This document shows, one piece after another, positions 38,042 to 64,000 of a stretch of 64,000 bases of DNA; the stretch's first letter is position 1, and every line of letters begins with the position of its first letter. The position numbers were made by a program, and so were the translations under genes. Below the pieces are notes generated by a model that was not told the origin of the DNA, made no database searches, and saw only the letters and a program-made list of their open reading frames with translations. Source of the stretch: a virus (lineage: Duplodnaviria > Caudoviricetes); the IMG/VR virus record IMGVR_UViG_3300021387_000688; one strand, 5' to 3'.

Positions 38042-38127
38042 GGGTAGGTGTGCCGAATGGTTTGAAGGCAGCGGACTGTAAATCCGTGACATTAGAAACA
38101 CTGGGGGTTCGAATCCCTCCCTGCCCA
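38042..38127 (+). tRNA. tRNA-Tyr(GTA)
   Basis: cloverleaf, GCGGA-CTGTAAA-TCCGT, long variable arm. Confidence 0.9.
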
Positions 38128-38131
38128 TCAT

Positions 38132-38214
38132 GCGTTCATGACCGGAGATGGCATCGGGCCTGACTGTAAATCAGGTGTATTCGTACATGGGGAGTTCGAG
38201 TCTCTCAGGGCGCA
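38132..38214 (+). tRNA. tRNA-Tyr(GTA), second divergent copy
   Basis: CCTGA-CTGTAAA-TCAGG, TTCGAG T-loop. Confidence 0.8.
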
Positions 38215-38219
38215 CTTTT

Positions 38220-38243
38220 GATCTTTGGCATTATTAAGGAAGG
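38220..38243 (+). promoter_or_regulatory. boxA-like antitermination element
   Basis: GATCTTTGGCA..TAAGGAAGG, repeated at 60866. Confidence 0.5.
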
Positions 38244-38254
38244 ATTTTCTTTAT

Positions 38255-38340
38255 GCACTCGTGGCGGAACTGGTAGACGCCCAGGACTTAAAATCCTGTG
38301 TCGGTTAAACGGCGTACGGGTTCGATTCCCGTCGGGTGCA
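38255..38340 (+). tRNA. tRNA-Leu(TAA)
   Basis: CAGGA-CTTAAAA-TCCTG, variable arm. Confidence 0.92.
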
Positions 38341-38459
38341 CTAATAGTTGCGGCTACACAACTTAAAAAGATACAACCGATCGAAGGGAACTGAGTATGT
38401 CCTTGTTAACGTTGTTATGTAGTGTTTGAAGGTTGCTGCAAACCGCACCTTCGTTTTAT

Positions 38460-38533
38460 GGTCCCGTAGCTTATCTGGATAAAGCATTTGCCTTCTAAGC
38501 AAAGGATTGGGGGTTCGAGTCCCTCCGGGATCA
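38460..38533 (+). tRNA. tRNA-Arg(TCT)
   Basis: TTTGC-CTTCTAA-GCAAA. Confidence 0.92.
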
Positions 38534-38542
38534 CTATTTTAT

Positions 38543-38613
38543 TCTCCCGTGGTGTAGCGGTCGCACATGAGGTTTTGATCCTTACAGGCTGGGTTCGAGT
38601 CCTAGCGGGAGAA
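38543..38613 (+). tRNA. tRNA-Gln(TTG)
   Basis: TGAGG-TTTTGAT-CCTTA. Confidence 0.88.
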
Positions 38614-38618
38614 CTACA

Positions 38619-39445
38619 GGGTTGGTTTCCGATCCTATTAAAAGATAAACGGTGAATACATAAGCCGTGAAAGTCATATTCGTAAAGGTATGGCGGTGGG
38701 AATTTATTTTCCACTCTACGTGAAAACAATGCATCTAACTTGTGATGGCGTTGACCGACGGCAAGTGCTGAGGTTGATAGTTGCAAGGCTCGGTAGTCGA
38801 CGAGCTTGGTTCAAGTTGAGAAGTTGCTTTCTTAATAGCAACTTTGACTACAAGAATGACAGAAGGTGTATTTATCCTCTAAGAAAGAATTGCAAGTTCC
38901 CATAGAGAGGATAACGAACAACGGTAGGTTCTTCAAAGAAATGAGGAGAATTGAAGTCAGTAGATCGAGTAGTTTTTGCAGACGAAAGTAGAAAGGTGAA
39001 GTTTTCTAAACCAGTCAAAAGCTGGCAAGGAACAAGCTAGACCTCATCTTTCAAGGTAGTCAACCGAAATTCTTATGATTAACTCAGTTGGATAGAGTAA
39101 TTGCCTCCTAAGCAATCTGTCGTAGGTTCAATTCCTACATCACAAGCAAAAGTGTCTAGCACAGCCAAATGAAAATGGCGTTATCCAGGTGAAATATACT
39201 GGCTTGGTGAGTACCGCAAGGAAAGTCAAGAATGGAATGAAGTAGTCAACTGGTAAGAGCCCGCAAGCTCTTCAGGCCGCAAGCCGCTAGGGATGAAAAA
39301 GGAAATTATAAGTTTGGTTGTAGTGAGTTCGACAACACTCTTTAAGTTGTTCGCCATGCGTTCTACTATCAGAAATGGTAGTGTGATTGAAGTTCCGAAA
39401 GGGATTAAAATGAACGTTGTTTAGGTCAATAAATCTCAGCCTTTT
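38619..39445 (+). ncRNA. GOLLD-like giant structured RNA with embedded tRNA-Arg
   Basis: about 830 nt without a credible ORF, many GNRA-capped hairpins (GCAA/GAAA), 3' end AATCTCAGCC, internal tRNA, located in a phage tRNA array. Confidence 0.55.
39073..39146 (+). tRNA. tRNA-Arg(CCT) embedded in GOLLD-like RNA
   Basis: ATTGC-CTCCTAA-GCAAT; one acceptor mismatch. Confidence 0.75.
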
Positions 39446-39454
39446 CATTTTTTT

Positions 39455-39526
39455 CAATCTGTAGTTTAACGGATAGAACTTCAGCCTCCTAAGCTGAAAG
39501 TGCGAGTTCAATTCTCGCCAGGTTGA
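39455..39526 (+). tRNA. tRNA-Arg(CCT)
   Basis: TCAGC-CTCCTAA-GCTGA. Confidence 0.88.
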
Positions 39527-39530
39527 CTAT

Positions 39531-39667
39531 ATAGCATAAGTTGTTCCTATTAAGAGCATGACTAAAATCTGCTGGCAATGCGCCGTATGGGTTCGACTCC
39601 CATCGATCCTCTAAAGGGGATTGTGGTGGAATGGTAGACACGGCAGACTCATTATACAACCCGCTAT
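39531..39667 (+). ncRNA. circularly permuted tRNA-Leu-like RNA (YrlA-like) in conserved frame
   Basis: 3' half (39563-39611) precedes 5' half (39616-39649); acceptor stem closed by TAAA; flanks pair. Confidence 0.8.
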
Positions 39668-39676
39668 ATTTTTTAT

Positions 39677-39749
39677 AGGTCCTTAGTGTTAACGGTTAGC
39701 ACGACAGTCTCCAAAACTGTTTGTGAGGGTTCGAATCCTTCAGGGCCTG
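39677..39749 (+). tRNA. tRNA-Trp(CCA)
   Basis: ACAGT-CTCCAAA-ACTGT. Confidence 0.92.
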
Positions 39750-39915
39750 AAACTGAATGGGTAGCCACTGAAAAGTAAATAGACTGTTTATGAAGTAGGG
39801 GTCCAAACAGAGCTTGTCGCTGATTACATATCAAAGAGTTATTAGTCTAGTCAACTAGATTCGGAGATGGTTTGAAGCTAAACAGGATGACAAAGGGCGA
39901 GTCCTGATTTTTTAT

Positions 39916-39999
39916 CGTTCGGTGGCGGAATTGGTAGACGCACTGGACTCAAAATCCAGCGGTGGCAACACCATGAGGGTTCGATTCCCTCCCGGACGA
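39916..39999 (+). tRNA. tRNA-Leu(CAA)
   Basis: CTGGA-CTCAAAA-TCCAG, variable arm. Confidence 0.92.
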
Positions 40000-40129
40000 C
40001 TCAAATCCCTCTTCCTAAAGTTGGGAGAAAAAGTAACTTTCGGATAGCGGTACAGCCGCATCTTTTTTCTATCCAGTATGAAAGTTATGAGGACGGTGAA
40101 AGGCTCCCGTCCATTTTTTTAAGGAAAAG

Positions 40130-40271
40130 AAATTGCACAGAGTGTTCCTATTATTGCTTTGGGAGCCCTGGGTTGTAGGTTCGAGTCCTACCCTGCCAAC
40201 TATTTCAAAAAGTTAAAAACTTTGGCAGGTAGCTCAACTGGTAGAGCAAGGATTTTTACACTTCGCAATTT
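40130..40271 (+). ncRNA. circularly permuted tRNA-Pro-like RNA (YrlA-like) in conserved frame
   Basis: TTGGGA + T-arm + CCTGCCA precede TGGCAGG + D-arm; frame GCACAGAGTGTTCCTAT...TACACTTCGC. Confidence 0.8.
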
Positions 40272-40278
40272 TTATATA

Positions 40279-40346
40279 TGAGGTTTAGCTTAGACTCGGT
40301 TAAAGCAACGTGCACAGAAAGGAGGTTCGATTCCTTCTAACCTCAA
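40279..40346 (+). ncRNA. tRNA-like RNA lacking an anticodon arm
   Basis: intact acceptor (TGAGGTT/AACCTCA), D arm and T arm; only about 14 nt between D and T arms. Confidence 0.6.
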
Positions 40347-40349
40347 GCA

Positions 40350-40791
40350 AAGCCGTAGGGAGTAGGATAACTCTTTAGCTTATAGGTTCAGTACTAACCT
40401 GTGAACTAATCACTCCCGAACTAGGTACAGGAACGAAAACTGAAGTGGGGAAGAAGCGGAGGTTGGATACTGTGGTAATCCTAGAGCATGTGAAAGTAGG
40501 AGAGTTGACTTTGGAGAGTGCCAACTTAATGTTCAACCCTGATCCAAGTATCTCTTCCCTTATAGGAAGGGTACGAAAAATGCATTGGATAGAATTAGAT
40601 GCTCCTACATATAAAAAATGACGATTATCGCACACGAGATGATCAAAAAGGTGCAACAACGGTGGGGAAAGCCCATGCCGGTTAAAAGAGCAGATCTGCG
40701 CGATGTCCTTCGACGGTATCTGCCGTAAGAGGGTAGGGGAACCTTGTAGACAAGGGACTGAAGGGGTGTACTCGATCCGAAAAGTTATCTT
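40350..40791 (+). ncRNA. unassigned large (about 430 nt) structured RNA
   Basis: closing helix AGGATAACT/AGTTATCTT, many internal hairpins, ends in T tract. Confidence 0.55.
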
Positions 40792-40801
40792 TTTTTTTAT
40801 T

Positions 40802-40892
40802 TCAGGATAATTCCTGCAAGGTCCGCGGATGTAGGAAATGGAAACCTTATAGATCAATAAGGAATAGGACGTTCGAATCGTTTGATCCTGAC
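40802..40892 (+). ncRNA. non-canonical tRNA-like RNA
   Basis: TCAGGAT/ATCCTGA acceptor, GTTCGAATC T-loop, 8-bp first arm, CCTTAT/ATAAGG second arm. Confidence 0.5.
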
Positions 40893-41149
40893 TTCACAAC
40901 AGCTGGTGACAATTATCCAGGAACACTTAGAGTCCGCTAAGGTTAGCTGCAACTAACTGGATGCTCAATGTATAGCAAAGACTGTGCAAAGATGACTGGA
41001 AGAAAGAGACACGTGGAAGGGTGTCGGGTAACTTTGCTACCTCCATAACGAGAAACCCGCCGTGATTTGCAGTCAACGATACAGTTTCTCTACTTCCAAT
41101 TTTTGGAGTGATCCATATCGGATTATTAGACATTAAGTCTGAAACATAT

Positions 41150-41232
41150 TGGAGCGTATCTCAGCTGTCTTATAAACAGTCCGGTATAATTCGAGTAATT
41201 GGTGGATGAGGGTTCAACTCCCTCCGCTCCAA
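41150..41232 (+). tRNA. arm-rearranged tRNA-Ile(TAT)-like RNA
   Basis: perfect acceptor and T arm; anticodon arm GCTGT-CTTATAA-ACAGT directly after acceptor; TAATTGGT D-loop-like motif lies 3' of it. Confidence 0.6.
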
Positions 41233-41321
41233 CTATATGTAATGATATCATTACAGGAATAAGATAAAATGGACTACCCCAACATAATCGCGATATGTGG
41301 GTAACGAAAGAGTAGTCAAAA

Positions 41322-41393
41322 TCCGCCGTAGCTCATCTGGTCAGAGCAGCTCTTTTTAAGGGTATGTAGTGGGTTCGACCCCCACCGGTGGTT
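41322..41393 (+). tRNA. tRNA-Lys(TTT), atypical short anticodon stem
   Basis: canonical D and T arms; GCTC-TTTTTAA-GGGT. Confidence 0.55.
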
Positions 41394-41396
41394 TAT

Positions 41397-41693
41397 ATGG
41401 AAAATGCACAGCCAAGAATTAAGTTTAAAAACTTTTGGCTTTGGTTTAAAGATCAAGTAATGCGTAAAAGGGCTTTCTATAATTTCTTTATAAGTAGAAA
41501 TGCTTGGGGAGCTTTTTCTATCAACTCCCACATCAGAGCAAGTACAGGGCAACCAAAAGTAACTTACAATACAGTAGAATCTGCGTTAAGGGCCGCAGAG
41601 AGTATGAGTAAAAAATATAACAAACATTTTTCAACTTATAAATGTTTGTTCTGCGATGGTTACCATGTAGGAAAAAATAGAGATAATAAATAG
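41397..41693 (+). CDS. small basic protein with YxCxxCxxxH motif
   Basis: YKCLFCDGYHVG. Confidence 0.65.
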   Translation: MENAQPRIKFKNFWLWFKDQVMRKRAFYNFFISRNAWGAFSINSHIRASTGQPKVTYNTVESALRAAESMSKKYNKHFSTYKCLFCDGYHVGKNRDNK

Positions 41694-41720
41694 GAGTAGT
41701 TAACAACTACTCCTTTTTTT
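41692..41720 (+). terminator. intrinsic terminator ending array 1 transcript
   Basis: AGGAGTAGTT-AAC-AACTACTCCT + T tract. Confidence 0.8.
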
Positions 41721-41766
41721 ATGCAAATTAAAACTTTTCTACTATATAATTAATAGGAGAATTTAT

Positions 41767-43188
41767 ATGCGTAAGAATTTATTTAAAGAAGCAATACCGG
41801 CAGAAAGGGACCGTAGAGCCGCAGGGGTAAAATACCGCGATTCAAGTGTAATAGATATGCTTCATGTTGAGGATGATACTTCCGGAGCTGCTACTGCTAA
41901 ATTGATTTCTTTCTTAAAGAAAGAAAAATTCAGCGAATACCAAGATTATTTTCGAAAAACAATCAAGCTTTTTGGAGAAAACTATGATGTATATGTTCCT
42001 TATGTATATAAAAAAGGAACATTTACAGTAGTTAGATGGTTTATCGAACCTGGCAAGTACAATAGAACTGCATGGGCGGAATGGTATAATGATGAAGAGG
42101 ATTGGGAATATCTTGATCCATCTTTCGCAAAAATCGTTGAGAGATATGGTCTAAAAAGAATGAAGGCTTACATAGGGGATGATCCTTACTATGGTTTAGG
42201 ACTTCGTATGCAGAATACTGAAATGACTTCTAATGATTTTGTTAATAAATTGTTAGTGGTTTATAATAAACTTGAAAAGGTAAAAGATAGTTACAATACA
42301 ACTAGTCAAATGGATGATAGAGAATACTACACATATAAAGGCAAGTTACCAAATAACAACCTTCAAATAAACGTATTCTATGTAGACGGAGAAAATGGTT
42401 GTACAATTGAATATGATTGTGAAGTATTAGGTGAAGATCTTAAATGCTATGTTGAATCTGAAAATTCTGCAGTCGGTCTAGATCTTAACGAACCTTCTGT
42501 AACAAAACCTTTCTTTGAGGTTTTAGCTGAAGAAGGAATTATTGAAGAGGAAGATGTAGATTCTTTAGCTGAAGAATTTGATAATGGGCCAACTTATAAT
42601 TATCTTCAAATTTTTGATGTAAGTGATTGGCCAAAGTATTTTGAAATGGTAGGGGAATTCTTAAAAGCAGAGGGTTATATAACTGAATACAATGTAGAAG
42701 CTAGTAGAGCCGTAAACTCTCGTAGAAAGAACCGTATTAAGAACAATCCAAATCTTAGACAGCAGTACGAATCCAGAATTTCTAAAATCTCAAGAAGAAT
42801 GAGAGAAGCAGAAGAAGATTGGGATGACCTTGGATACGATGATTCAGATGCAGGTGTAGAAGATTGGGATGATCCTAATGAAGCTTTAGATGGTGAAGAT
42901 TATTTCACTTATGATGATCCTGATTATACAGGAATGAATTCTGGGGAAAGAGCTTATGACCATTACGATTCTGATATGGAAGATGTAATTGCAGATTCAA
43001 TGCCAACCCGTAAAAAGGGATTAGGTATTGGAAAGAAAAGAGGAGACTCTTCATATTTCAATAAGGATTATTTAGACGCCCCAGATATGTGGGATGAAAA
43101 TGGAGACAATGTTCCTGAAGAAATTGAATGGAAGTTGACTAAAAAAGTTGCAGAATCTAAAAAACCTTTCAAAACAAGATTGTATTAA
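41767..43188 (+). CDS. hypothetical protein with acidic C-terminus, possible head-internal protein
   Basis: 473 aa ORF, AGGAG RBS, LFKEA / MREAEE / VAES motifs. Confidence 0.7.
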   Translation: MRKNLFKEAIPAERDRRAAGVKYRDSSVIDMLHVEDDTSGAATAKLISFLKKEKFSEYQDYFRKTIKLFGENYDVYVPYVYKKGTFTVVRWFIEPGKYNRTAWAEWYNDEEDWEYLDPSFAKIVERYGLKRMKAYIGDDPYYGLGLRMQNTEMTSNDFVNKLLVVYNKLEKVKDSYNTTSQMDDREYYTYKGKLPNNNLQINVFYVDGENGCTIEYDCEVLGEDLKCYVESENSAVGLDLNEPSVTKPFFEVLAEEGIIEEEDVDSLAEEFDNGPTYNYLQIFDVSDWPKYFEMVGEFLKAEGYITEYNVEASRAVNSRRKNRIKNNPNLRQQYESRISKISRRMREAEEDWDDLGYDDSDAGVEDWDDPNEALDGEDYFTYDDPDYTGMNSGERAYDHYDSDMEDVIADSMPTRKKGLGIGKKRGDSSYFNKDYLDAPDMWDENGDNVPEEIEWKLTKKVAESKKPFKTRLY

Positions 43189-43274
43189 TAAATAAATTCT
43201 CCAAAGTACCCTCTATCATTGATAGAGGGTTTTTTATTGGCCCCTCTACTATTTTATAGAAAAAGGAGTCTAAT

Positions 43275-43610
43275 ATGGAAAAGGTAGATTTGATTAAAGA
43301 GATTATGGATAGTAATCTTAAAGACGAAACAAAGTTAGAATTGGTAAAAACTTTGATGCTATCTAAAGATGAAGCCACCACTCAGCCCCTCCAAATGCCT
43401 TACGTTATAAGAGAAGTTTATAAAGAAGTTCCAAAACCATGGTGGAACGAAATTACTTGCGGAGATAGTACTTCTAAGAAAACAAATCCTTTAGAACTTT
43501 GGGATGACAGTGGTTGGTGGCAGCAACACTTGAAAGATGCGCAAGCAGATGTAGAATCTATCCTTCATCCTAATGCTACTTGGGGAATTAATACGGTAGT
43601 AAGTTGCTAA
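43275..43610 (+). CDS. hypothetical protein
   Basis: AGGAG RBS. Confidence 0.7.
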   Translation: MEKVDLIKEIMDSNLKDETKLELVKTLMLSKDEATTQPLQMPYVIREVYKEVPKPWWNEITCGDSTSKKTNPLELWDDSGWWQQHLKDAQADVESILHPNATWGINTVVSC

Positions 43611-43617
43611 TTATTTC

Positions 43618-44088
43618 ATGAATGAATGGCAATATAATAAAGGATCGTTTCAAGGATTCTGGTATCTTAGAGATGGAACAATAATTGAATTAGGTGAAGG
43701 AGAAGAACATCTGGAATACTTTCTTCACAATTATAAAGAATTTGGAGTAACCGATCAAGAAATAGAAGACATTTGTAATATTAAAGGAATTACCCTTGAT
43801 TGGGAATTACATCATTTTATGGAAATGTCTGAACGAGAAGTTGACTTCCTTTGCCTGGCACTCAAAAAAGGAAATCTAAGAGTTAGATTATATGATTGTT
43901 TTAACGATCCTTATATTTCTATAGAATATTATGGTCAACGAAATAAAAAATACGTTTGCAATTGTTTAATAGATATGGAAGGGGAATATTTTAGTAAAGT
44001 CCACCTTCCATATTATTTTTATGATTACGAATCCGATTCTGGAATTGATATAAAATCAATAGACAAAGCTATTGTTGAGTTTGCGTAG
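43618..44088 (+). CDS. hypothetical protein
   Basis: CTAATT-N5-ATG start. Confidence 0.65.
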   Translation: MNEWQYNKGSFQGFWYLRDGTIIELGEGEEHLEYFLHNYKEFGVTDQEIEDICNIKGITLDWELHHFMEMSEREVDFLCLALKKGNLRVRLYDCFNDPYISIEYYGQRNKKYVCNCLIDMEGEYFSKVHLPYYFYDYESDSGIDIKSIDKAIVEFA

Positions 44089-44590
44089 GACTCCAAGAAG
44101 CCCACAAAGTAGATTCAGCTCTGTAAATTCTTTCTCGCCATTCATCCCCTTTCAAATTATCTATTTGATACAGGTCTTCATGTTCTGTCACATACTGTTT
44201 AACTTTTTCATCCCAATTAGATTCATTGGCCTTCAAAATATCTTTAATATGGCTGTCCCAAATAACAGGGTAGCAATGAGGATTAATAATATGACAGATT
44301 TTAGAAATTGCAGAAATCTGTCTACCTACTCCCATTCCTATATCTGGCCCACTAAAGATATTTAATTCTCCAGCCGGTATTTCATAACGATGCTGTACCA
44401 ACCAATCACAAGTTGCTTTTCTAAGAGAACCCTTTCTTACAGCCCAACCATTACCTCTATCAGCTACAGCCTGAAAAAGTAAACTCATTGTTTTATCATT
44501 AGCTGTATGCCAATTACTAAAGAGAACATCAAAGCTTTCTTTTTTCCAATTTACAGATCCTTCAATTGAAGGGTTAATTGCTTCACTCAT
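44069..44590 (-). CDS. hypothetical protein
   Basis: SAISKICHIINPHCYPVIWDS motif; CTATATT-N6-ATG. Confidence 0.65.
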   Translation of the reverse strand: MSEAINPSIEGSVNWKKESFDVLFSNWHTANDKTMSLLFQAVADRGNGWAVRKGSLRKATCDWLVQHRYEIPAGELNIFSGPDIGMGVGRQISAISKICHIINPHCYPVIWDSHIKDILKANESNWDEKVKQYVTEHEDLYQIDNLKGDEWRERIYRAESTLWASWSPTQTQQ

Positions 44591-44674
44591 GTTAGTAATA
44601 TAGTTTTCAATTTTTTACCTTTTTCGAAATTATAGTTCCGGGTTTAAGCTATAATATTAGCAAGAGGTGCAAAT

Positions 44675-45394: not shown

Positions 45395-45642
45395 ATTTTG
45401 TAACCAATAAAGTCAAGAAATCTTTGGGAAATTATATTATTTCTCATTATTCAGATCTTAACAAGTGCCGTACTAAGGAAGATGTTAAAAACTTTGTATT
45501 GGCGGGAAAAACAGAAGTCAATGAAGAATACATTGATTCCTTTGTAATTCCTACAATTGATAAACAGCCTAGCGTAGCTAGAGCTATTGATTTTGTTGGA
45601 CGCAACCTTGTGTTGGCTGGTGAAAATATGAGGGCCTATTAA
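45391..45642 (+). CDS. hypothetical protein
   Basis: AGGAG RBS, ATGA overlap. Confidence 0.7.
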   Translation: MNFVTNKVKKSLGNYIISHYSDLNKCRTKEDVKNFVLAGKTEVNEEYIDSFVIPTIDKQPSVARAIDFVGRNLVLAGENMRAY

Positions 45643-45643
45643 T

Positions 45644-47367: not shown

Positions 47368-47383
47368 TTATCATAAAGGAGAA

Positions 47384-48050: not shown

Positions 48051-49439
48051 TTACTTAAGTTCGTAACTTACATCTTTTTGAATGATTTCTACATTCTTAA
48101 ATCCATTTGTATTTAGATATTTTTGCAAGAAGTCTTGAGCCTCTTTATCACCATGTACTAAGAAAATCTTTTTAAGTTTAGAAGTATCAATTTTCTTTAA
48201 CCATTCTACTTGCTCTTCAAAATCTGCATGAGAAGAAAATGCACTTAAGCTTTGAACCTCTGCATTTAATTTATGCTCATCTCCTTCAATATTTACAATA
48301 GGATTCTTTTCAAGAATATCTCTACCTAAAGTACCTTCTCCTTGATAACCAACTAACAATATAGTATTACGAGGATTAGAAACTCCAAACTGTAAATGAT
48401 TGATGATACGGCCACCTTCACACATACCTGAACTTGCCAATACAATACAAGGCTTTCTACTTCTGGCAACTTCAACACTTTCTTTGAAATCATTTACGCA
48501 ATGTAAACTACCTACAGAGAATGGGTTCTTACCTTTACTTACAAAGTTGTTTTGAATATTTTCATTGAAACATTCTGGGTGAATATTAAATACACCTGTA
48601 GCATTAACAGCCATTGGAGAATCAATATATACAGGTATTCTAGGTATCTTCTCTTCTCTCATTAAGTTCTTCAAATAATAAACTAACTCTTGTGCACGTT
48701 CAATTGCAAAGGTAGGTATAATAACTTTACCACCTCTTTCAATAGTTCTGTTTATAATATTTGCAAACTCTTTTAATGCCAATCCCGCATCTTGGTGTTT
48801 GCGATTTCCATAAGTACTTTCCATTACGATGTAATCTGGTGCAGGGAAAGAAGTCTCCGGAGGATTAGTAATAGGGTTGTTAGCTCTACCCAAATCTCCT
48901 GTAAACAAAATATGCATTGGCGTTTTTAACAAACCGAAAAACTTTTTTCTTTTGATTTCTAAATCTACTAAAGCAGATCCTAAGATATGACCCGCATCGT
49001 AAAAAGTAATTTTTACATTATCATTAAGATGTTTCTCTTTATGATAGAAGTGACATCTAAATTGATTAATAGTTTTTACAACATCACTTTCTTCATAGTA
49101 AGATCCGAGCTTTTCATGTTTTTGAATTTTAGCAGAGTCTAGCATTATGATAGAAGATAAATCTCTCGTGGCTGGAGTAGATCTAATCTTTCCTTCATAA
49201 CCTTCTTTTACAAGTTTAGGTAATAGACCACAATGGTCAAAATGTGCATGGGTTAGAATGATTGTTTCTATATCTTTTATATCTATAGGACAAACAAAAT
49301 CTTTATTCTTTTGCTGATCTTCTTGATTGCCTTGCCATGCACCGTAGTCAATCAAGATATATTTATCATCTAATTTCAAAAAATGCTTAGACCCTGTAAC
49401 TTCGCCTACCGCACCAAAACTTTTTAATTCTACCTTCAA
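48051..49439 (-). CDS. MBL-fold beta-CASP ribonuclease (CPSF/Ysh1-like)
   Basis: GEVTGS, THAHFDH, AGHILGS, FTGD, ESTYG, SSHAD, LVHGD. Confidence 0.92.
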   Translation of the reverse strand: MKVELKSFGAVGEVTGSKHFLKLDDKYILIDYGAWQGNQEDQQKNKDFVCPIDIKDIETIILTHAHFDHCGLLPKLVKEGYEGKIRSTPATRDLSSIIMLDSAKIQKHEKLGSYYEESDVVKTINQFRCHFYHKEKHLNDNVKITFYDAGHILGSALVDLEIKRKKFFGLLKTPMHILFTGDLGRANNPITNPPETSFPAPDYIVMESTYGNRKHQDAGLALKEFANIINRTIERGGKVIIPTFAIERAQELVYYLKNLMREEKIPRIPVYIDSPMAVNATGVFNIHPECFNENIQNNFVSKGKNPFSVGSLHCVNDFKESVEVARSRKPCIVLASSGMCEGGRIINHLQFGVSNPRNTILLVGYQGEGTLGRDILEKNPIVNIEGDEHKLNAEVQSLSAFSSHADFEEQVEWLKKIDTSKLKKIFLVHGDKEAQDFLQKYLNTNGFKNVEIIQKDVSYELK

Positions 49440-55876: not shown

Positions 55877-56103
55877 TGTTTATAGAATACAAATGCAAGA
55901 AATGCGGGGCAGAAAGATGTTTTTCTGCCGTACAGAAAGATAAAGTGATTTGTAAAAAATGTGGCAATGAAATGGAGTCGACTCAAGACAATATTAGCAT
56001 TGACCAGTATACTACTCCAGAGGCCAGATATTTGGCAGATGAAGCAATCTATAATACAATAGGAGATAGGTATTCACAGAAGCATAGATTAGAGCATCTG
56101 TAA
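55876..56103 (+). CDS. zinc-ribbon (FmdB-like) protein
   Basis: EYKCKKCG...CKKCG. Confidence 0.7.
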   Translation: MFIEYKCKKCGAERCFSAVQKDKVICKKCGNEMESTQDNISIDQYTTPEARYLADEAIYNTIGDRYSQKHRLEHL

Positions 56104-56114
56104 CTATATAATAT

Positions 56115-58199: not shown

Positions 58200-58266
58200 T
58201 TTCATACCTTAATCTCTTTGCTATAATTAAAAGCATAACAAAGAGATAAGGATGAGGTTACAATAA

Positions 58267-59628
58267 TTGAATCAGTCAATTCCAGAAAACATTAAAACCA
58301 GTTTTGAAACTGCTAACGAATTTCGAATGTTAGCCCCTCTTTCCGTAGCTCAGGGTATGGTTTTAATGGCAGATAATGACTACGAAAACGAAAGCAATCA
58401 AAGACAAAACGCCGCATATATGATGGATCTTATCGCTAATAACGTTCCTCAAATAGAGGAAACTAAAACTTCTAAGAGTGGTAAGAAAACAGTAGAATCT
58501 TATAATAAATATTCTCCAGTATTTACAGAAGCAATGATCAAAGAAATAGAAGCAAAGTATAAAGAGTTGTCTGTTTCTGATGCACATGAATATAGATTCA
58601 AACAAGCTTTGGAGTATATGAAAAACTTCAAGCCTACAATTTCATTAGGTGAAGCATTATATAGACTTTCTTTCTATTTGATTTGTAATGAAAATAACTT
58701 GGCAAAATCTACAAACAATCTTATCCTTTTCGTTCAAAGAATGTTTAGAGATAAAGCAAACAATATGTTAGTAGACTCTGCTATTTTACAAGGTGGACAA
58801 GGTAAATCTACTATACAGAAAGGTTTCTTGCAAGCCGCCAAAGAGATTGGGTTTAATTCTTCTGAATGTCATTTGCCATCTATTTCAGGTGGAGTTCAGG
58901 AAGCATTTGTAAGAAATGAAGTTTGCGTAGATGAGGAAACTCATTTTAGTGCAATTGATATTGACTCATTAAACCGCGTGCTTGATAAATCTGTAGTTAC
59001 CATTAAAGGTAAATATATAAAAGAATGGTCTGCTAAGTCTACAGCGAATGTTTTAGTAGGTACAAACTTTTTGCCAAACGATGTTAATGCAAGACGTTAT
59101 TCAGTTCGTATGGTAGATGAAAATTTCAGGTTGAATGAAAACTTTGGTAGATGGACTATCCCAGGTACTTTAGGGGATATGTATGGAGATAGTTATGATA
59201 GGGTTATTGAATGGACTAAAGAAGGTTGGCTAAATCTTTTCTATTATTGTAATAAATATGATATCAAACCTATTCCATTTACTGAAACTTCTTTCAACTA
59301 CAACCTCCAGTATAGATTAAAAAGAACATTAGATGAAAGCGGCCAATATGAATTAACTATTCAAGATGTTATTAAGTTGTTGGAATTAACTGAAGGTGAT
59401 AGGTTCGATTATAAGAGTAAGCAGCAGTTAAGAAATCAATTGTATATTTTAGCAAATCAGCTTGAACTTCCTATCATCGAAAGGCATCATAACACATATT
59501 CTAAATATGATTGGCATAAAGCTTTGGAGATCGATGAAACTTATTTCGATAAAGATACATTGGAAAAAGTATTCTGTTTCTTCCATCACGAAAGATTCAA
59601 CACCCCAGAATTCGAATCTGTAGTATAA
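58267..59628 (+). CDS. VirE/SF3-helicase-like P-loop NTPase
   Basis: LQGGQGKST, CVDEE, KGKY...ANVLVGTN, ARRY. Confidence 0.65.
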   Translation: MNQSIPENIKTSFETANEFRMLAPLSVAQGMVLMADNDYENESNQRQNAAYMMDLIANNVPQIEETKTSKSGKKTVESYNKYSPVFTEAMIKEIEAKYKELSVSDAHEYRFKQALEYMKNFKPTISLGEALYRLSFYLICNENNLAKSTNNLILFVQRMFRDKANNMLVDSAILQGGQGKSTIQKGFLQAAKEIGFNSSECHLPSISGGVQEAFVRNEVCVDEETHFSAIDIDSLNRVLDKSVVTIKGKYIKEWSAKSTANVLVGTNFLPNDVNARRYSVRMVDENFRLNENFGRWTIPGTLGDMYGDSYDRVIEWTKEGWLNLFYYCNKYDIKPIPFTETSFNYNLQYRLKRTLDESGQYELTIQDVIKLLELTEGDRFDYKSKQQLRNQLYILANQLELPIIERHHNTYSKYDWHKALEIDETYFDKDTLEKVFCFFHHERFNTPEFESVV

Positions 59629-59641
59629 CACTAAATTAAAT

Positions 59642-60490
59642 ATGCGTAAACATTTATTCGAATTTACCTTAATGGATATGGATATATCAGGAGTTACTAG
59701 AAAAGCCATCGAGAAAGATGGATTAGGTAAACTCCGTCTTATTAATGCCAATGTATATGGGGACGATCTAGAACTTTTGTTTGAAATGGAATCTAGTCAC
59801 GATGCTCCTAAACACGTAGATATGCAAGGTAAAGAAAAGCCAGGGTTGAAATATGGTTACGCTTGCGGTATCCGTTTCTTAAAAGCAACTAAAGTATTAA
59901 AGAAAGATGAAAAGTTTGATGAAGATAATTTAAAAAAGGTTTTCGATAAGTGCGATGTTCAAGTGCATTGTGACTGCCCTGCTTTCTACTGGCAAGGAAT
60001 GCATCAAGATGATTCTGCTAACAAGACTGCAAAATATAAATTCCAAGGTACCCCAGGTAATCATAAATGGACTTTAATTCATGCAGATAAAGGAGGAAAA
60101 ACAGGACAAGCTTTATGTAAGCATTTATTCAAATGCCAAGAATGGACTTATGAGCATATACCAGAAGTGTTGGAAAAACTTTCTCTTAAGGAAGAGTTAG
60201 TTGATCCAGAAATACAGCAAGGGATATTAGATAGACTTAGAGAAGTAGAAGATGATATTTGGTGCAAAGATGTAGATGTACCTACAATGGTTGGGTTAGC
60301 ATATGGAAACCTTTTAGGAACAGCCGCCTTTAATATTGTTCTTAATTGGATTGAAGAGAATGCAAATCCAATGGATGAATATCAGGATCAGGATGAGTAT
60401 GTAGATTATTTAAGATCTTTGATAGATCAAATATTGGCTACTTTACCTGAAAGTACTGCAGAAATAATTGCAAAATATTTGTCAAAGTAG
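59642..60490 (+). CDS. SWIM zinc-finger protein
   Basis: VHCDCPAFYW...LCKHL. Confidence 0.75.
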   Translation: MRKHLFEFTLMDMDISGVTRKAIEKDGLGKLRLINANVYGDDLELLFEMESSHDAPKHVDMQGKEKPGLKYGYACGIRFLKATKVLKKDEKFDEDNLKKVFDKCDVQVHCDCPAFYWQGMHQDDSANKTAKYKFQGTPGNHKWTLIHADKGGKTGQALCKHLFKCQEWTYEHIPEVLEKLSLKEELVDPEIQQGILDRLREVEDDIWCKDVDVPTMVGLAYGNLLGTAAFNIVLNWIEENANPMDEYQDQDEYVDYLRSLIDQILATLPESTAEIIAKYLSK

Positions 60491-60560
60491 TTAGAAAACT
60501 CTCCCAGTTGCACTAACTATATTCATTATATAAGATTTATTAGAAAGGAGATTAAATTCA

Positions 60561-60680
60561 ATGTTATCAACTTTAAGAAACATAGCAATTGTAAGTATCA
60601 TTGAATGCGACAGTCCAGTTGTCGTAGCTCCTATTGCATGCGCAGAAGAAATTGCGGATGATGAACCTGATAAAAGTTGA
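60561..60680 (+). CDS. leader peptide of tRNA array 2 (39 aa)
   Basis: MLSTLRNIAIVSIIECDSPVVVAPIACAEEIADDEPDKS; AAGGAG RBS; stop overlaps antiterminator arm. Confidence 0.8.
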   Translation: MLSTLRNIAIVSIIECDSPVVVAPIACAEEIADDEPDKS

Positions 60681-60734
60681 GCCTTATAGTTTTTGTAAAT
60701 TGTAAGGCTCTTCAGAAATGAAGAGCCTTTTTTT
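60679..60734 (+). promoter_or_regulatory. transcription attenuator (antiterminator/terminator) 2
   Basis: GAGCCTTATA pairs with TGTAAGGCTC, competing with terminator AAGGCTCTTCA-GAAA-TGAAGAGCCTT + T tract. Confidence 0.8.
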
Positions 60735-60865
60735 ATCCGATTTTTAATTTTCGGGTAGGAAATAAAAAAGAAAAAGTTTTTTTAACTTTTTCGAAAAAGA
60801 AGGAATTGAAAATTCCTATATTATTAACATAAGAAACAATTAATTAAAAGTTAAAAGTTTCTTAA

Positions 60866-60888
60866 GATCTTTGACAATTTAAGGAAGG
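60866..60888 (+). promoter_or_regulatory. boxA-like antitermination element
   Basis: GATCTTTGACAA-TTTAAGGAAGG just before the first tRNA. Confidence 0.55.
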
Positions 60889-60898
60889 TAAATTATTT

Positions 60899-60971
60899 GC
60901 TCCGTTAGCGCAGTTGGTAGCGCAGCACCCTTACAAGATGACGGTCGGTGGTTCGAGTCCATCACGGAGCA
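60899..60971 (+). tRNA. tRNA-Val(TAC), weak anticodon stem
   Basis: GCTCCGT/ACGGAGC acceptor, CTTACAA loop. Confidence 0.75.
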
Positions 60972-61038
60972 CTTCAATAGTTTGGAAGCAGGTTAGCTTG
61001 AGTCGAAAGATAGAAATAGCAATCGTCCAAACAATTAT

Positions 61039-61110
61039 GGGGCTATAGATCAGTGGTAGTATCGCGACCCTTTCAAGGTTGAGACGCAGGTTCAACTCCT
61101 GCTAGCCCTA
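61039..61110 (+). tRNA. tRNA-Glu(TTC)
   Basis: CGACC-CTTTCAA-GGTTG. Confidence 0.88.
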
Positions 61111-61169
61111 ATAAAAGGCATACGGATAATTCCTTTCCTAGTAATAGGTTCCTTATATCCATAATATTT

Positions 61170-61243
61170 GGTCCTTTGGAGGAGCGGTTTTCTCTCGCCA
61201 CGTTGTCAGCGTGGAGAAACGGGTTCGATTCCCGTAAGGACCG
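61170..61243 (+). tRNA. tRNA-Asp(GTC)
   Basis: CCACG-TTGTCAG-CGTGG. Confidence 0.88.
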
Positions 61244-61244
61244 T

Positions 61245-61316
61245 AGAGGTAAATTGTTGGATCCGTGAAGCCCACAAGGCTGGAGTAACGGCAAGGTTCA
61301 AGTCCTTGTTATCTCT
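61245..61316 (+). ncRNA. degenerate tRNA-like RNA
   Basis: AGAGGTAA/TTATCTCT stem plus CAAGG-TTCAAGT-CCTTG T arm; no recognisable D or anticodon arm. Confidence 0.4.
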
Positions 61317-61327
61317 TTTTATTTTAT

Positions 61328-61401
61328 GGGGGCGTAACTCAGTTGGCTAGAGTGTCAGCTTTGCAAGCTGAAAGTCGAGAGTTCAAATCTCTCCGCTTCC
61401 A
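61328..61401 (+). tRNA. tRNA-Ala(TGC)
   Basis: TCAGC-TTTGCAA-GCTGA, G3:U70. Confidence 0.92.
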
Positions 61402-61585
61402 CTCAGGTTAGTTTCTATGCGACAAGAGAACCTTCTAACCTAGCGAACAGCTAAAATAAAAAAGAATCCGATCTTGAGAGTCTAGTAACTTCGGGCCGGA
61501 AGCCCCATAAGTGAACCAACTCGAAATAATTGATTGATTGACAAGTGTACATAGTCTTTCAATTGATTATTATTTTTAATTACAT

Positions 61586-61662
61586 TGGGGCGTATACCCT
61601 CAGTCTGATAAACTGCAGAAAGGTTAATTGGTTACATGGTGGTTCAATTCCACTCGCCCCAA
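61586..61662 (+). tRNA. arm-rearranged tRNA-Ile(GAT)-like RNA
   Basis: same topology as 41150..41232; anticodon and T arms nearly identical to canonical Ile at 62055. Confidence 0.6.
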
Positions 61663-61664
61663 CT

Positions 61665-61738
61665 AGGCTCGCGACATTGCCGATGTAGTGACTGGTCTGC
61701 AAAACCAAGTGGCGGGGTCTGACTCCCCGGCGGGCTTC
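61665..61738 (+). tRNA. non-canonical tRNA-Cys(GCA)
   Basis: TGGT-CTGCAAA-ACCA; 8-bp acceptor, TCTGACT T-loop, 3-nt-loop first arm. Confidence 0.55.
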
Positions 61739-61749
61739 TTTTAATTTAT

Positions 61750-61821
61750 CGGAAAGTGGATCAAGGGTTGATCGCTTGTTTTGGGAACAAGTCCATGCAG
61801 GTTCGAGTCCTGTCTTTCCGA
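61750..61821 (+). tRNA. tRNA-Pro(TGG)
   Basis: CTTGT-TTTGGGA-ACAAG. Confidence 0.88.
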
Positions 61822-61882
61822 CTCAAAAGTAGTAGTAGTGGTTGCAAACATGAACCTATTGTAGGAAGTTCGAAATTCCTAT

Positions 61883-62045
61883 CGATTGTATAGTGTATGG
61901 AGCACAGGGGCCCCGAGTACTTGACAATAGGGCCTGACGATAGCTTACGACCTAGCGTGGCTAGACGACGGGGTGACAATAAGGCCTGACGATAAAGGAA
62001 ACAGGGCGCCAGGGTGAGTTAAGGTTCGATTCCTTCGTACAGTTG
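61883..62045 (+). ncRNA. tRNA-like RNA with ~100-nt insertion replacing the anticodon loop
   Basis: CGATTGTA/TACAGTTG acceptor, D arm, GGTTCGATTCC T arm; internal 21-nt direct repeat. Confidence 0.55.
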
Positions 62046-62054
62046 TATTTTTAT

Positions 62055-62128
62055 TGTCCAGTAGCGCAAACGGTTAGAGTGTCAGTCTGATAAACTGAAG
62101 GTTGGTGGTTCAATTCCACCCTGGACAA
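62055..62128 (+). tRNA. tRNA-Ile(GAT)
   Basis: TCAGT-CTGATAA-ACTGA. Confidence 0.9.
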
Positions 62129-62271
62129 CTGGGTGCAGCAACGTCTTGGATAGCACGTTACGAGAGCTAACCTAATTGTATAAAGGAGTTAGCTAGAGGA
62201 TATGGTAACATACCTCGTTCTAAGACTAGAGTGTTGGGCGGATAGGGCCGATGGAAGACACTCAATGTTAT

Positions 62272-62345
62272 GGGGCTATAGTGAAGATGGTTATCACGCA
62301 GCACTGTCACTGCTGAGATCGCGGGTTCGAATCTCGCTAGTCCCG
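62272..62345 (+). tRNA. tRNA-Asp(GTC), second copy
   Basis: CAGCA-CTGTCAC-TGCTG. Confidence 0.9.
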
Positions 62346-62446
62346 CTAAAAAAGTATTCGGTTAGATGAAATTGAGTTAAGCTTTCTCAAACTGATTAGA
62401 GTAAACGATAGGTAGGTACCTACTATATCACATCTAACTTGTTTAT

Positions 62447-62518
62447 GGGCCGGTAGCCTAATTGGTAAGGCGCCTGATTTGCACTCAGGTCTATCGGGTT
62501 CGAGTCCCGCCGTGTCCA
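62447..62518 (+). tRNA. tRNA-Ala(TGC), second copy
   Basis: CCTGA-TTTGCAC-TCAGG; irregular acceptor. Confidence 0.8.
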
Positions 62519-62601
62519 CTAAAAAATGGTTAATCTTTGTAAGTTTGACCGCCTTTCCCTACTATACTAGTTCTGAGGGTTTTGGATTGACTTACAAATA
62601 T

Positions 62602-62673
62602 GGGGCTATAGATCAGTGGTAGTATCGCCTCCCTTTCAAGGAGGAGACCCAGGTTCAACTCCTGGTAGCCCTA
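62602..62673 (+). tRNA. tRNA-Glu(TTC), second copy
   Basis: CCTCC-CTTTCAA-GGAGG. Confidence 0.9.
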
Positions 62674-62716
62674 ATCAAAGTTTTCCGGAGCCTTTCTAAT
62701 GGAAAAAGGTCCACCA

Positions 62717-62790
62717 CGGGCAGTAGACCAGCTGGTTAAGCCGCTGCGCCTGGGACGCAGAGATCGGGGGTTCGATTCCCTCCTGCCCGA
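62717..62790 (+). tRNA. tRNA-Pro(TGG) with C33
   Basis: CTGCG-CCTGGGA-CGCAG. Confidence 0.8.
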
Positions 62791-62909
62791 CTAACGTACC
62801 TGATAAGTTTTCTTACGTAAAGGTTGATTGTAACAAGAAATGTAGTTACATCGTAAAAGTGATGAAGGAAGGCCCGCTAACAGCTTAATAATTGATAGCG
62901 GATCCATAT

Positions 62910-62982
62910 GGGCTTGTAGCTCAATAGGTAGAGCGTTTGAATGGCATTCAAAAGGTAGTCGGTTCGAAGCCGATCAGGTCCA
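62910..62982 (+). tRNA. tRNA-Ala(GGC)
   Basis: TTTGA-ATGGCAT-TCAAA, G3:U70. Confidence 0.88.
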
Positions 62983-63204
62983 CGAAAGCTAAGCTGTAAA
63001 GTTCCCTGCAGACTTGGCAATATTGTTTGACGGTATCAAGTGTGAATACTTCGCACAAGTCAAAACCGAAAAGAGTAATTTGCTTTTCAACTTTGATAAA
63101 AACCGGCCTTTCGTAAGCGCCTACGAATAGAAAAGGGAACACCTTTTTTGAAAATATTTGGATATGTATGCTATATTACAAATCCAAATTATAATAGAAC
63201 GTTT

Positions 63205-63278
63205 CGATCCTTAACTCAATTGGCTAGAGTGCCTCTCCTACACGGAGGAAGTTCTAGGTTCAAGTCCTAGAGGATCGA
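63205..63278 (+). tRNA. tRNA-Val(TAC) with C33
   Basis: CCTCT-CCTACAC-GGAGG. Confidence 0.82.
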
Positions 63279-63280
63279 CT

Positions 63281-63356
63281 AGCGGGCGAGTGAAACGGAA
63301 TTATCATGCTAGCCTCATAAGCTAGAGATACTGGTGTTCGACTCCCAGGTCCGCCA
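63281..63356 (+). tRNA. tRNA with CAT anticodon (Met or Ile2)
   Basis: CTAGC-CTCATAA-GCTAG; 1:72 mismatch. Confidence 0.75.
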
Positions 63357-63363
63357 TATACAT

Positions 63364-63437
63364 TTCGGGGTTGTACAGTTGGCTAGTATGTCGGGCTCAT
63401 AACCCGAAGGTCAGTGGTTCGAGTCCACTCCCCGAGT
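63364..63437 (+). tRNA. tRNA-Met(CAT), initiator-type anticodon stem
   Basis: TCGGG-CTCATAA-CCCGA (three G:C pairs). Confidence 0.85.
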
Positions 63438-63484
63438 CTATATCCGTTACTTTATTACTAAGTAAAGTAATAGGAGAGAGTTTT

Positions 63485-63880
63485 ATGAAAAAGTTTTTAA
63501 CAATTGTTTTTGCATTTATTCTTACCGCAACTGTTTTTGCTGAAACTTATAAAGTAAAAGAAGTTTACGGTAAAGTAATGTTCGAAGACGGTACCAGGAT
63601 CTTTGAAGGACAAGAATTGGAAGGAGAAGCTTCTATTAAAGTGTTCCCTCAATCCCATATTATCCTTGTACAGGATGGCAAGATTAGAAAAATTAATGCT
63701 AGTCAAAATGGTACAGTAAATGAACTTTATGCAAAAGCATTTAAGTCTAACGGACTTAAGAAAATGAAAATTGCAGATGCAAGTCATATTGCACCTCCTT
63801 CTGAAGGTACAAGAAAAGGAGTAGCAACTGCAGCTTCAAGGGCTTCTGAAGCAAAAGAAGACTTTGAATGGGATGAATAA
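63485..63880 (+). CDS. exported protein with signal peptide inside tRNA array 2
   Basis: true start MKKFLTIVFAFILTATVFA after GGAGAG; beta-rich FecR-N-like segment. Confidence 0.7.
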   Translation: MKKFLTIVFAFILTATVFAETYKVKEVYGKVMFEDGTRIFEGQELEGEASIKVFPQSHIILVQDGKIRKINASQNGTVNELYAKAFKSNGLKKMKIADASHIAPPSEGTRKGVATAASRASEAKEDFEWDE

Positions 63881-63889
63881 GTAAAAAGT

Positions 63890-63946
63890 AAACGCACAAA
63901 GTGTTCCTATTTTATACATGATTTGGTTTGTATACACTTCGCGTTT
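63890..63946 (+). ncRNA. third copy of the GTGTTCCTAT frame, lacking a tRNA-like insert
   Basis: AAACGCACAAAGTGTTCCTAT...TACACTTCGCGTTT. Confidence 0.7.
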
Positions 63947-63954
63947 TTTTGTTT

Positions 63955-64000
63955 GGAGGAGTGGCCCAGTGGTTACGGCGGGTGCCTGCTAAGCATCTGG
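63955..64000 (+). tRNA. tRNA-Ser(GCT), truncated by window end
   Basis: GGAGGAG-TGGCCCAGTGG..., GGTGC-CTGCTAA-GCATC. Confidence 0.85.

Follow-up and report, generated by a model that had tools for sequence, protein, structure and literature searches.

The transfer RNA (tRNA) genes of a huge phage, followed here in a 64,000-nucleotide stretch of the IMG/VR virus record IMGVR_UViG_3300021387_000688 (Duplodnaviria; Caudoviricetes; the whole stretch is called the window in the following) and in the sequence which continues it, are arranged in at least four units. All four recognised units open with a promoter-like motif, a leader open reading frame (ORF) of 33-41 codons with an AAGG or AGGAG ribosome-binding site, an antiterminator and a terminator, in this order, before the tRNA genes begin. 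Judged from the sequence, the arrangement probably represents ribosome-mediated attenuation, by which the speed at which its own codons are decoded would feed back on each block of tRNA genes.

Leaders that match their tRNA blocks

The window was extended with contigs of several metagenome assemblies which carry its exact proteins and are 355-398 kb long, two of them 397.6 kb. The contigs L005 and L010 add 19.8 kb past the window (L010 position + 63535 gives the window-equivalent coordinate), and window and extension, together the region scanned, make up 84 kb of a genome of ~398 kb. The window crosses the ends of one 397.6-kb contig, which would fit a circular or circularly permuted genome. 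Units 1 and 2 begin in the window (Table 1), and units 3 and 4 were recognised as two blocks by reading the extension sequence; a mechanical scan for terminators that are preceded by small ORFs and stand before tRNAs returns exactly these four. The promoter-like motif is in its exact form a 16-mer with one copy in the window and two in L010, all three placed upstream of a leader ORF, and a generic sigma-70 promoter scan of the window arrays gave results at chance level. Two of the four leader ORFs are present in public gene calls, leader 2 as a gene for 39 amino acids, and leader 1 is identical in four strains but for one synonymous UUA/UUG change; with leaders so nearly alike, comparing strains gives no information on them. 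The terminators of all four units combine stems of 9-12 bp that contain G+C pairs with GAAA loops and T tracts.

The match of a leader was taken as the number of its codons readable by the tRNAs of each unit under standard wobble rules, with the array anticodons for leader-by-array matching taken from ARAGORN. Leader 1 has 21 of 32 codons read by its own unit, as compared with 4, 1 and 6 read by units 2, 3 and 4; for leader 2 the own unit reads 23 of 38, or 26 with tRNA-Ser(AGY) counted, and units 1, 3 and 4 read 5, 1 and 3; leader 3 has 15 of 38 (7, 7 and 15 for units 1, 2 and 4) and leader 4 has 34 of 40 (10, 7 and 1 for units 1, 2 and 3). Against the codon usage of the phage, binomial P values for leaders 1-4 are 4e-5, 1e-3, 2e-5 and 7e-13, and windows of equal length taken from real genes reach the observed match in 0/13755, 88/13515, 14/13515 and 0/13435 cases, respectively. 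The agreement extends to synonymous choice, as 37 of the 45 Leu, Arg, Ser, Gln and Ile codons in the four leaders fit the isoacceptor of the own unit: all Leu codons are UUR, all Arg codons AGR, all Gln codons CAA and all Ile codons AUA in leader 1, in leader 2, AGU makes up three of four Ser codons and AUY five of six Ile codons, and only CUN, CGU, CAG and UCN are used for Leu, Arg, Gln and Ser in leader 3. It is also bound to the reading frame, with a match of 0.62 in the frame of the ORF versus 0.20 and 0.24 in the other frames, and to position, own-unit codons peaking at 0.78-0.84 between 7 and 16 codons upstream of the stop codon. In the last three leader codons the match is 0.23, a low value that fits the proposed switch, since codons within or beside the antiterminator arm could not serve as sensors.

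On the RNA level, the stop-codon region of the leader is complementary to the 5' arm of the terminator, with duplexes of -10.4 to -15.8 kcal/mol in the four units and in two units of G001, a related phage described below; the fraction of background windows that do as well is at most 0.003 in five of these six units and 0.04 in the sixth. For unit 1 the duplex amounts to -14.2 kcal/mol (0.2% of background windows) and the nascent fold to -15.4 kcal/mol, for unit 2 to -15.1 kcal/mol (0.3% of background windows) and -19.4 kcal/mol, and the 5' arm of the unit 1 antiterminator extends from the last sense codons into the stop codon, of which it includes the first base. If the RNA of the same six units is folded before the 3' arm of the terminator is present, an antiterminator hairpin of -15 to -25 kcal/mol results, and if the footprint of a ribosome at the stop codon is masked, the terminator is predicted to form. 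All 12 units found in this and other huge phages show the antiterminator fold, with the ORF stop on, or at most ~15 nt from, the antiterminator 5' arm; among the six units of other phages outside G001, three stop-region duplexes beat the 1% level of the background and the other three lie at ~7-18%. Small hairpins are folded within some leaders and do not pair with the antiterminator arm.

A leader written in the block's own codons, together with a switchable stop, implies that the block is probably made when its own codons are read slowly. With own codons read fast, a ribosome at the stop codon would cover the 5' arm of the antiterminator, the terminator would form and the tRNAs would be off; with own codons read slowly, as when charged tRNA is scarce, the ribosome would stall upstream, the antiterminator would form and the polymerase would enter the tRNA genes. 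The extra tRNAs would then speed the reading of the leader again, which would constitute a separate negative-feedback loop for each codon set. That the motif is a promoter, that the ORF is translated, that transcription and translation are coupled and that there is a physiological trigger are steps which we infer, with host tRNA loss, cleavage by host nucleases and late-gene demand as candidate triggers. The anatomy, as far as it can be read from DNA, would qualify the units as leader-peptide attenuators whose regulated genes are tRNAs.

The tRNA content of the blocks is itself ordered. Of the 22 tRNA genes that ARAGORN detects in the window, all of them on the + strand, nine lie at 38041-41394 and 13 at 60899-63438. 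The Rfam tRNA model confirms each one and adds three above the gathering score (a second Tyr-like gene at 38132-38214, a gene with UAU anticodon at 41150-41232 and one with CAU anticodon at 63281-63356). A permissive threshold yields three more, namely a tRNA which the window end interrupts (63955-64000), a Cys-like element (61665-61737) and a truncated tRNA-like element (40280-40345). Past 64 kb, tRNA-Ser(AGY) is completed and followed by two isolated tRNAs in a stretch with small ORFs and genes for a GGDEF-domain protein and an RNA ligase, and 27 more tRNA genes stand at the window-equivalent position 72.1-76.4 kb. An earlier reading of the window, made from the sequence alone, had described two nearly non-overlapping codon-class regulons under separate sensor control. 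The identities which it listed for both arrays are right, as seen from the anticodon loops, and the two clusters have no anticodon in common, although five of the listed tRNAs are weak or non-canonical. From the missing families it had predicted tRNAs for Gly, Thr, His, Phe and Asn past 64 kb, and all five occur 8-12 kb further, in two more blocks, beside Leu(CUN), Ser(UCN), Gln(CAG), Arg(CGN) and five to six Lys genes. Separate modules, each with a leader and terminator of its own and leader codons that mirror the block, are thus borne out for four units; two regulons were too few, however, as there are at least four units and cluster 2 continues past 64000.

Altogether, window and extension hold 57 tRNA(-like) genes with 36 anticodons for 20 amino acids, and no tRNAs were found in window positions 1-38000 or in the 7 kb past the last block. 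The only amino acid common to clusters 1 and 2 is Ile, with an AUA reader in one and an AUY reader in the other; the identity of the GAU-like element at 61586-61662 was assigned by eye only. Nine anticodons occur twice in the window, both copies always in one cluster, and over the four units 13 of 16 multi-copy anticodons stay within one unit (P ~5e-5 for random placement). Unit membership in the four units is associated with the first codon base (permutation P 0.0046), an association found also in two other phages (P 0.014 and 0.004), and is not associated with the second codon base (P 0.74) or the wobble base (P 0.23).

Recurrence in other huge phages and points of doubt

Other arrays were found in the relative G001 and, with the frame motif described below as a probe, in huge-phage contigs of up to 415 kb. 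Eight further leader-attenuator-tRNA units, with leaders of 22-47 codons, are encoded by five of these (G001/L003, L207, L213, L212 and L214), and six of the eight show codon matching, both weak ones being located in G001. A leader-by-array matrix of all 12 units has a diagonal of 0.585 versus 0.271 off the diagonal, and shuffling the assignment of leaders to arrays gives P 5e-5, with an equal value for the eight non-window units alone. One leader of 22 codons, rich in Asn, Thr and Pro, stands before two Asn, three Pro and two Thr tRNAs, leaders rich in Ala, Glu, Phe and Val precede Glu, Ala, Phe and Val tRNAs, and homologues of leaders 3 and 4 were also found. In three homologous leader pairs, leader and array covary: matching codons amount to 11/222 with the tRNA in the array versus 2/222 (Fisher P 0.010), Tyr and Trp codons being present where Tyr and Trp tRNAs have joined, Cys codons with a Cys tRNA and more Val codons with Val tRNAs. 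We lean slightly towards the wider view that many huge phages run codon-set-specific 'tRNA-stats', attenuators which would gauge the reading speed of codons and top up the matching tRNAs.

G001 is the single relative in IMG/VR by protein similarity (57% identity over a protein of 453 amino acids), a 140-kb fragment which CheckV rates as 35% complete, with 37 tRNA matches in two arrays and one isolated tRNA on the opposite strand. One of its two arrays has two leader ORFs and two attenuators that directly abut tRNAs, and the exact 16-mer of unit 2 precedes one of these units. An IMG/VR scan with the exact 16-mer returned 55 loci, all but G001 chance matches without tRNAs, and for a 17-mer in metagenome contigs only G001's record, among the matches listed, has tRNAs downstream. 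No GenBank phage was matched in a megablast with 24 kb, the matches of units 3 and 4 by blastn were confined to single tRNAs, and IMG/VR look-ups with the exact Ser-tRNA fragment and the RecA-like protein gave no match. Relatives reached via a protein of 473 amino acids have contigs which break inside the array upstream of its gene, and those reached via the RNA ligase have no tRNAs within 10 kb. A leader-like ORF of 19 codons with the terminator of the Glu/Ala units was observed in two contigs (L212, reverse complement 10836-10953; L211, 13031-13148), and ARAGORN calls no tRNA in the ~2 kb that follow; this could be a unit in decay, or one with another target.

Several observations weigh against attenuation as the common control of these blocks. 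Over its full length, leader 3 ties with unit 4 (15/38 each), and only its second half matches the own unit. A clear 1:2 protector hairpin was not seen in the leader folds; an untranslated leader would default to read-through, and an extra tRNA would not help if amino acids and not tRNA run short. The segment behind the terminators of units 1 and 2 may be a second, unattenuated promoter which could bypass the switch. Terminator-like hairpins and framed modules ending in T runs lie before the last two tRNAs of unit 1, and tRNA-Ser(AGY) comes after an ORF and a framed module with a T run; given such internal elements, not all members of a unit need be co-transcribed. The sequence-only reading had also called for a comparison with related phages, which divides: matched leaders are found in six of eight units, but G001's other array is leaderless, and its leaders match weakly, with 4/35 codons (P 0.11) and 38/46 versus a background of 0.69 (P 0.03).

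Beside the tie of leader 3, it was observed that its first half (L010 8411-8470) consists largely of unit 4 codons (Phe, Asn, Thr, His and Met), which might couple the two neighbouring units.

Alternative explanations

The circuits could be, specifically, a counter-defence against host anticodon nucleases with one unit for each target set, which we regard as possible and rather unlikely. It is known that tRNAs of phages offset defences which cleave tRNA (PMC10264068). The phage has up to seven Lys genes of divergent sequence, other isodecoders likewise occur in several divergent copies, and an RNA ligase gene lies between the arrays. Yet the target sets of nucleases do not coincide with the units, since Lys tRNAs occur in units 1 and 4, Arg tRNAs in units 1, 3 and 4, and the colicin E5 set of Tyr, His, Asn and Asp (PMC1669751) is split over units 1, 4 and 2. 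A sensor of decoding speed would, moreover, react alike to host shut-off, tRNA turnover and late-gene demand, and the layout lends the nuclease idea in particular no support.

Genome history alone, with local duplication or arrival of blocks and inserted modules which split one island, ORFs and terminators being incidental, is an improbable source of the pattern. It would account for duplicated anticodons sitting in one array and for the two Glu genes of unit 2, which are 88-92% identical and differ by compensatory stem changes. Array content does vary among relatives: G001 has Glu, Asp, Ala, Met and Arg(AGA) in both arrays, contigs of relatives with 65-69% protein identity end in different tRNAs upstream of one same gene, and in one strain an endonuclease-like ORF is inserted in array 1. 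However, copies with the same anticodon within a unit are mostly 44-66% identical (one pair reaches 92%), and because of this low identity their co-location is not explained by recent tandem duplication; tRNAs with different anticodons are hardly more alike within units (0.496) than between units (0.483). Recent tandem duplication, and local duplication with anticodon shift, were rejected as causes of the partition on the grounds of these identities. Nor can history explain own-block codons in a leader, which keep to the reading frame, extend to synonymous choice and hold a fixed distance from the antiterminator, or the recurrence with covariation in other phages.

About equally improbable is that the attenuators are real and physiologically minor, the units being driven mainly by second or internal promoters and the leaders serving to trim or end upstream transcription. 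In units 1 and 2, a segment of 160-270 nt behind the terminator aligns with the upstream regions of G001's leaderless arrays, before which this conserved block stands alone. An exact 10-mer of the second block in unit 2 recurs only at 38234, upstream of an internal tRNA gene of unit 1, tRNA-Leu; this 10-mer, common to two tRNA-proximal sites, is not over-represented. Against such a role for second promoters, the first tRNA follows the terminator at ~10-110 nt in units 3 and 4 and in seven of the eight other-phage units, which leaves no room for, and shows no sign of, a second block, and codon matching and helices have been kept by selection across lineages.

That the leader RNA senses tRNAs directly without translation, in a T-box-like manner or by anticodon pairing, is hardly credible, since the many triplets in the leader that are complementary to anticodons of downstream tRNAs match only in one frame, which opens with ATG behind a ribosome-binding site and closes on, or at most ~15 nt from, the antiterminator 5' arm in 12 of 12 units. 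A T-box or other riboswitch was rejected as a candidate, as Rfam scans of the window, of both arrays (E<=1) and of the extension gave no match to such a family.

Embedded RNAs, unusual tRNAs and neighbouring genes

Unit 1 includes a GOLLD-like RNA (E 1.7e-25 in a search over 37000-42000 and 5e-26 over a shorter stretch), in whose variable linker an Arg(AGG) tRNA is encoded at 39073-39147; a second Arg(AGG) gene, at 39455-39527, directly follows the RNA and is 45% identical to the linker copy. In phages, GOLLD is known to occur close to tRNA islands, and its linker sometimes contains a tRNA (PMC12286853). Two framed modules of unit 1 contain permuted tRNA-like domains. The one at 39531..39669 has no Rfam match at E<=1; in the one at 40132..40278, the YrlA-like alignment runs from T arm over acceptor hairpin to D arm, with the truncated tRNA-like element at 40280-40345 next to it. 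YrlA has a tRNA-like domain with the identical order of arms (PMC4201824). The GOLLD-like and YrlA-like matches both lie below the Rfam gathering scores. Bacterial Y RNAs of the YrlA type carry the tRNA-like domain on a stem that binds Ro60 and have a Ro60 gene as neighbour; no TROVE/Ro60 domain was found among 29 ORFs scanned.

These modules have a conserved frame, in which a variable insert is flanked by an 18-nt 5' motif and a complementary 3' motif with a T run behind it; the frame occurs ~10 times here on the strand of the tRNAs (window 39531, 40132 and 63891; L010 356, 558, 1124, 2085, 10970, 12445 and 12726). Seven copies are present in G001 (L002, L003). Some copies have permuted tRNA-like domains (YrlA-like) as inserts, and others just a short hairpin. 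An exact 18-mer is common to this phage and G001 and recurs in huge-phage contigs of up to ~500 kb, in several of them beside tRNA arrays. The frame may be a protein-binding or processing module, and could also be a terminator.

Table 1. Coordinates of the features in and around the tRNA units (window positions, except where L010 is named).
Feature	Position	Strand	Remarks
Promoter-like motif, unit 1	37571..37586	+	diverged copy of the 16-mer with 4 mismatches; found by regular expression and alignment with units 2-4
Leader ORF, unit 1	37605..37706	+	33 codons + stop; AAGG ribosome-binding site
Antiterminator, unit 1	37698..37742	+	5' arm 37698-37704; 3' arm 37736-37742, the start of the terminator stem
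Intrinsic terminator, unit 1	37736..37768	+	11-bp stem, GAAA loop, T tract; hairpin -16.9 kcal/mol
Second promoter-like block, unit 1	37769..37860	+	between terminator and first tRNA; possible unattenuated entry
tRNAs of unit 1, first part	38041..40000	+	Tyr, second Tyr-like (weak), Leu(UUA), Arg(AGA), Gln(CAA), Arg(AGG) x2, Trp, Leu(UUG)
GOLLD-like RNA	38991..39442	+	RF02032, 97.8 bits (gathering score 150), model positions 1-416
Framed module with permuted tRNA-like domain	39531..39669	+	T arm, loop-capped acceptor stem, D arm; YrlA-like by architecture
Framed module with YrlA-like match	40132..40278	+	RF02553, 43.8 bits (gathering score 69), E 1.6e-7
End of unit 1	41150..41394	+	non-canonical UAU (Ile-AUA-like) 41150-41232; tRNA-Lys(UUU) 41321-41394
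Promoter-like 16-mer, unit 2	60508..60523	+	sole window match at <=3 mismatches; also before units 3 and 4
Leader ORF, unit 2	60561..60680	+	39 codons + stop; AGGAG ribosome-binding site
Antiterminator hairpin, unit 2	60679..60710	+	5' arm begins in the stop codon; 3' arm overlaps the terminator stem
Intrinsic terminator, unit 2	60704..60736	+	11-bp stem, GAAA loop, T tract
Second promoter-like block, unit 2	60737..60898	+	ends a few bases before tRNA-Val
tRNAs of unit 2, Val to Ile	60899..63438	+	Val, Glu, Asp, Ala, GAU-like odd element, Cys-like, Pro, Ile(AUY)
tRNAs of unit 2 after Ile(AUY), in order	60899..63438	+	Asp, Ala, Glu, Pro, Ala(GCY), Val, CAU (weak), CAU
ORF inside tRNA region	63485..63880	+	131 amino acids; no Pfam family match
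'Empty' framed module	63891..63950	+	stem-loop alone, T run at end
tRNA-Ser(AGY), 5' part	63954..64000	+	cut by window end; completed in extension contigs
Leader ORF, unit 3	L010 8411-8530
Leader ORF, unit 4	L010 10681-10806

Several tRNA genes are unusual. Those at 41150-41232 and 61586-61662, with the anticodons UAU and GAU, are related non-canonical tRNA-like genes which have almost no D arm and carry a D-loop-like motif after the anticodon arm. In three sister strains (L013, L015 and L017) the slot at 41150 is taken by an unrelated canonical CAU tRNA; as the leader keeps its two AUA codons despite this swap, the UAU and CAU tRNAs are both probably AUA decoders. In the extension, a tRNA with an eight-base anticodon loop (ARAGORN call ACTT) is encoded at L010 12270-12343, and a 74-nt class-I tRNA with UAA anticodon, which reads UUA, at L010 1158-1231 lacks the long arm that Leu tRNAs have. 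At L010 11787-12343 there is a row of five to six Lys genes, with pairwise identities of 49-80%.

The RNA ligase (PF09414; L010 4048-4713, ~67.6-68.2 kb in window-equivalent coordinates) is encoded between tRNA blocks beside the GGDEF-domain gene, and a beta-CASP/RMMBL RNase between units 1 and 2 (window 48051-49439, - strand); both are candidates for tRNA repair or processing. Relatives of the ligase with 60-75% identity are found on many long contigs, one of which is labelled as a Paludibacteraceae metagenome-assembled genome, a weak hint at the host. In one strain, an ORF for 220 amino acids with a weak TnsA-like endonuclease match (L013 13389-14051) takes the place of the second Arg(AGG) tRNA. 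Eight of nine ORFs in or beside the arrays have no Pfam match, the ninth having a weak endonuclease match. Further proteins of the window are RecA/UvsX-like, a ClpP-like protease, an anaerobic ribonucleotide reductase and the beta-CASP RNase, with a weak match to a T4-type portal.

Meaning and comparison with known systems

The purpose of phage tRNAs has long been debated in terms of codon compensation, host tRNA loss and tRNA-cleaving immunity, and their regulation has hardly been asked about. A leader written in the codons of its own tRNAs tells what the phage would 'measure', namely the decoding speed of defined codon sets. In a full-text literature collection that is incomplete, no report was found of tRNA genes or phage tRNAs being controlled by a leader peptide or attenuator, nor of a regulatory leader in front of phage tRNA islands; new here are units 3 and 4, the matrix at the level of regulons, the positional and frame tests, and the recurrence with covariation in other phages. 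If true, control of this kind would be the first translation-coupled attenuation of tRNA genes and a new layer of viral control over host decoding, it would take leader-peptide attenuation beyond metabolic operons and into the translation apparatus, and it would explain why tRNA islands are split into blocks of complementary content. The grouping by first codon base in three phages (GNN-type, ANN-type and mixed U/C units) would then indicate which tRNA pools fail together during infection. The leaders might also offer compact, programmable and codon-specific sensors for synthetic biology.

Leader-peptide attenuators of enterobacteria include trpL, hisL, thrL, leuL, pheL and the multivalent ilv leaders, and pheST is controlled in this way as well. 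The pheL and his attenuators are documented examples (PMC3082878, PMC4046918). The phage units share with them the short ORF rich in the sensed codons, the mutually exclusive helices and a ribosome at the stop codon that would favour termination, and with the ilv and thr leaders the multivalence, several amino acids being represented in each leader. In contrast, the phage units govern tRNA genes rather than biosynthetic or synthetase genes, so that the loop would act on the decoder itself. Phage leaders have 22-47 codons and would sense 5-10 amino acids with choice at the synonymous level, the codons being spread over the middle of the ORF and not concentrated in one short stretch; a single phage genome has several units whose codon sets complement each other, and the 1:2 protector hairpin of the enterobacterial leaders has no clear counterpart.

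With T-box leaders, which in Gram-positive bacteria act as riboswitches for tRNA, the units have in common an antiterminator/terminator switch that reports a specific tRNA pool; a T-box, however, contacts a single uncharged tRNA directly, with no translation involved, and its targets are synthetase or amino-acid genes, whereas the signal in the phage would be a translated frame. The tRNA islands of large phages such as T4, T5 and huge phages have been interpreted as codon compensation or counter-defence (PMC10264068, PMC11025619). The island described here resembles them in its clusters on one strand, the small ORFs between the tRNAs and the isodecoders with divergent bodies, and differs in being cut into units, each with what would be a matched sensor.

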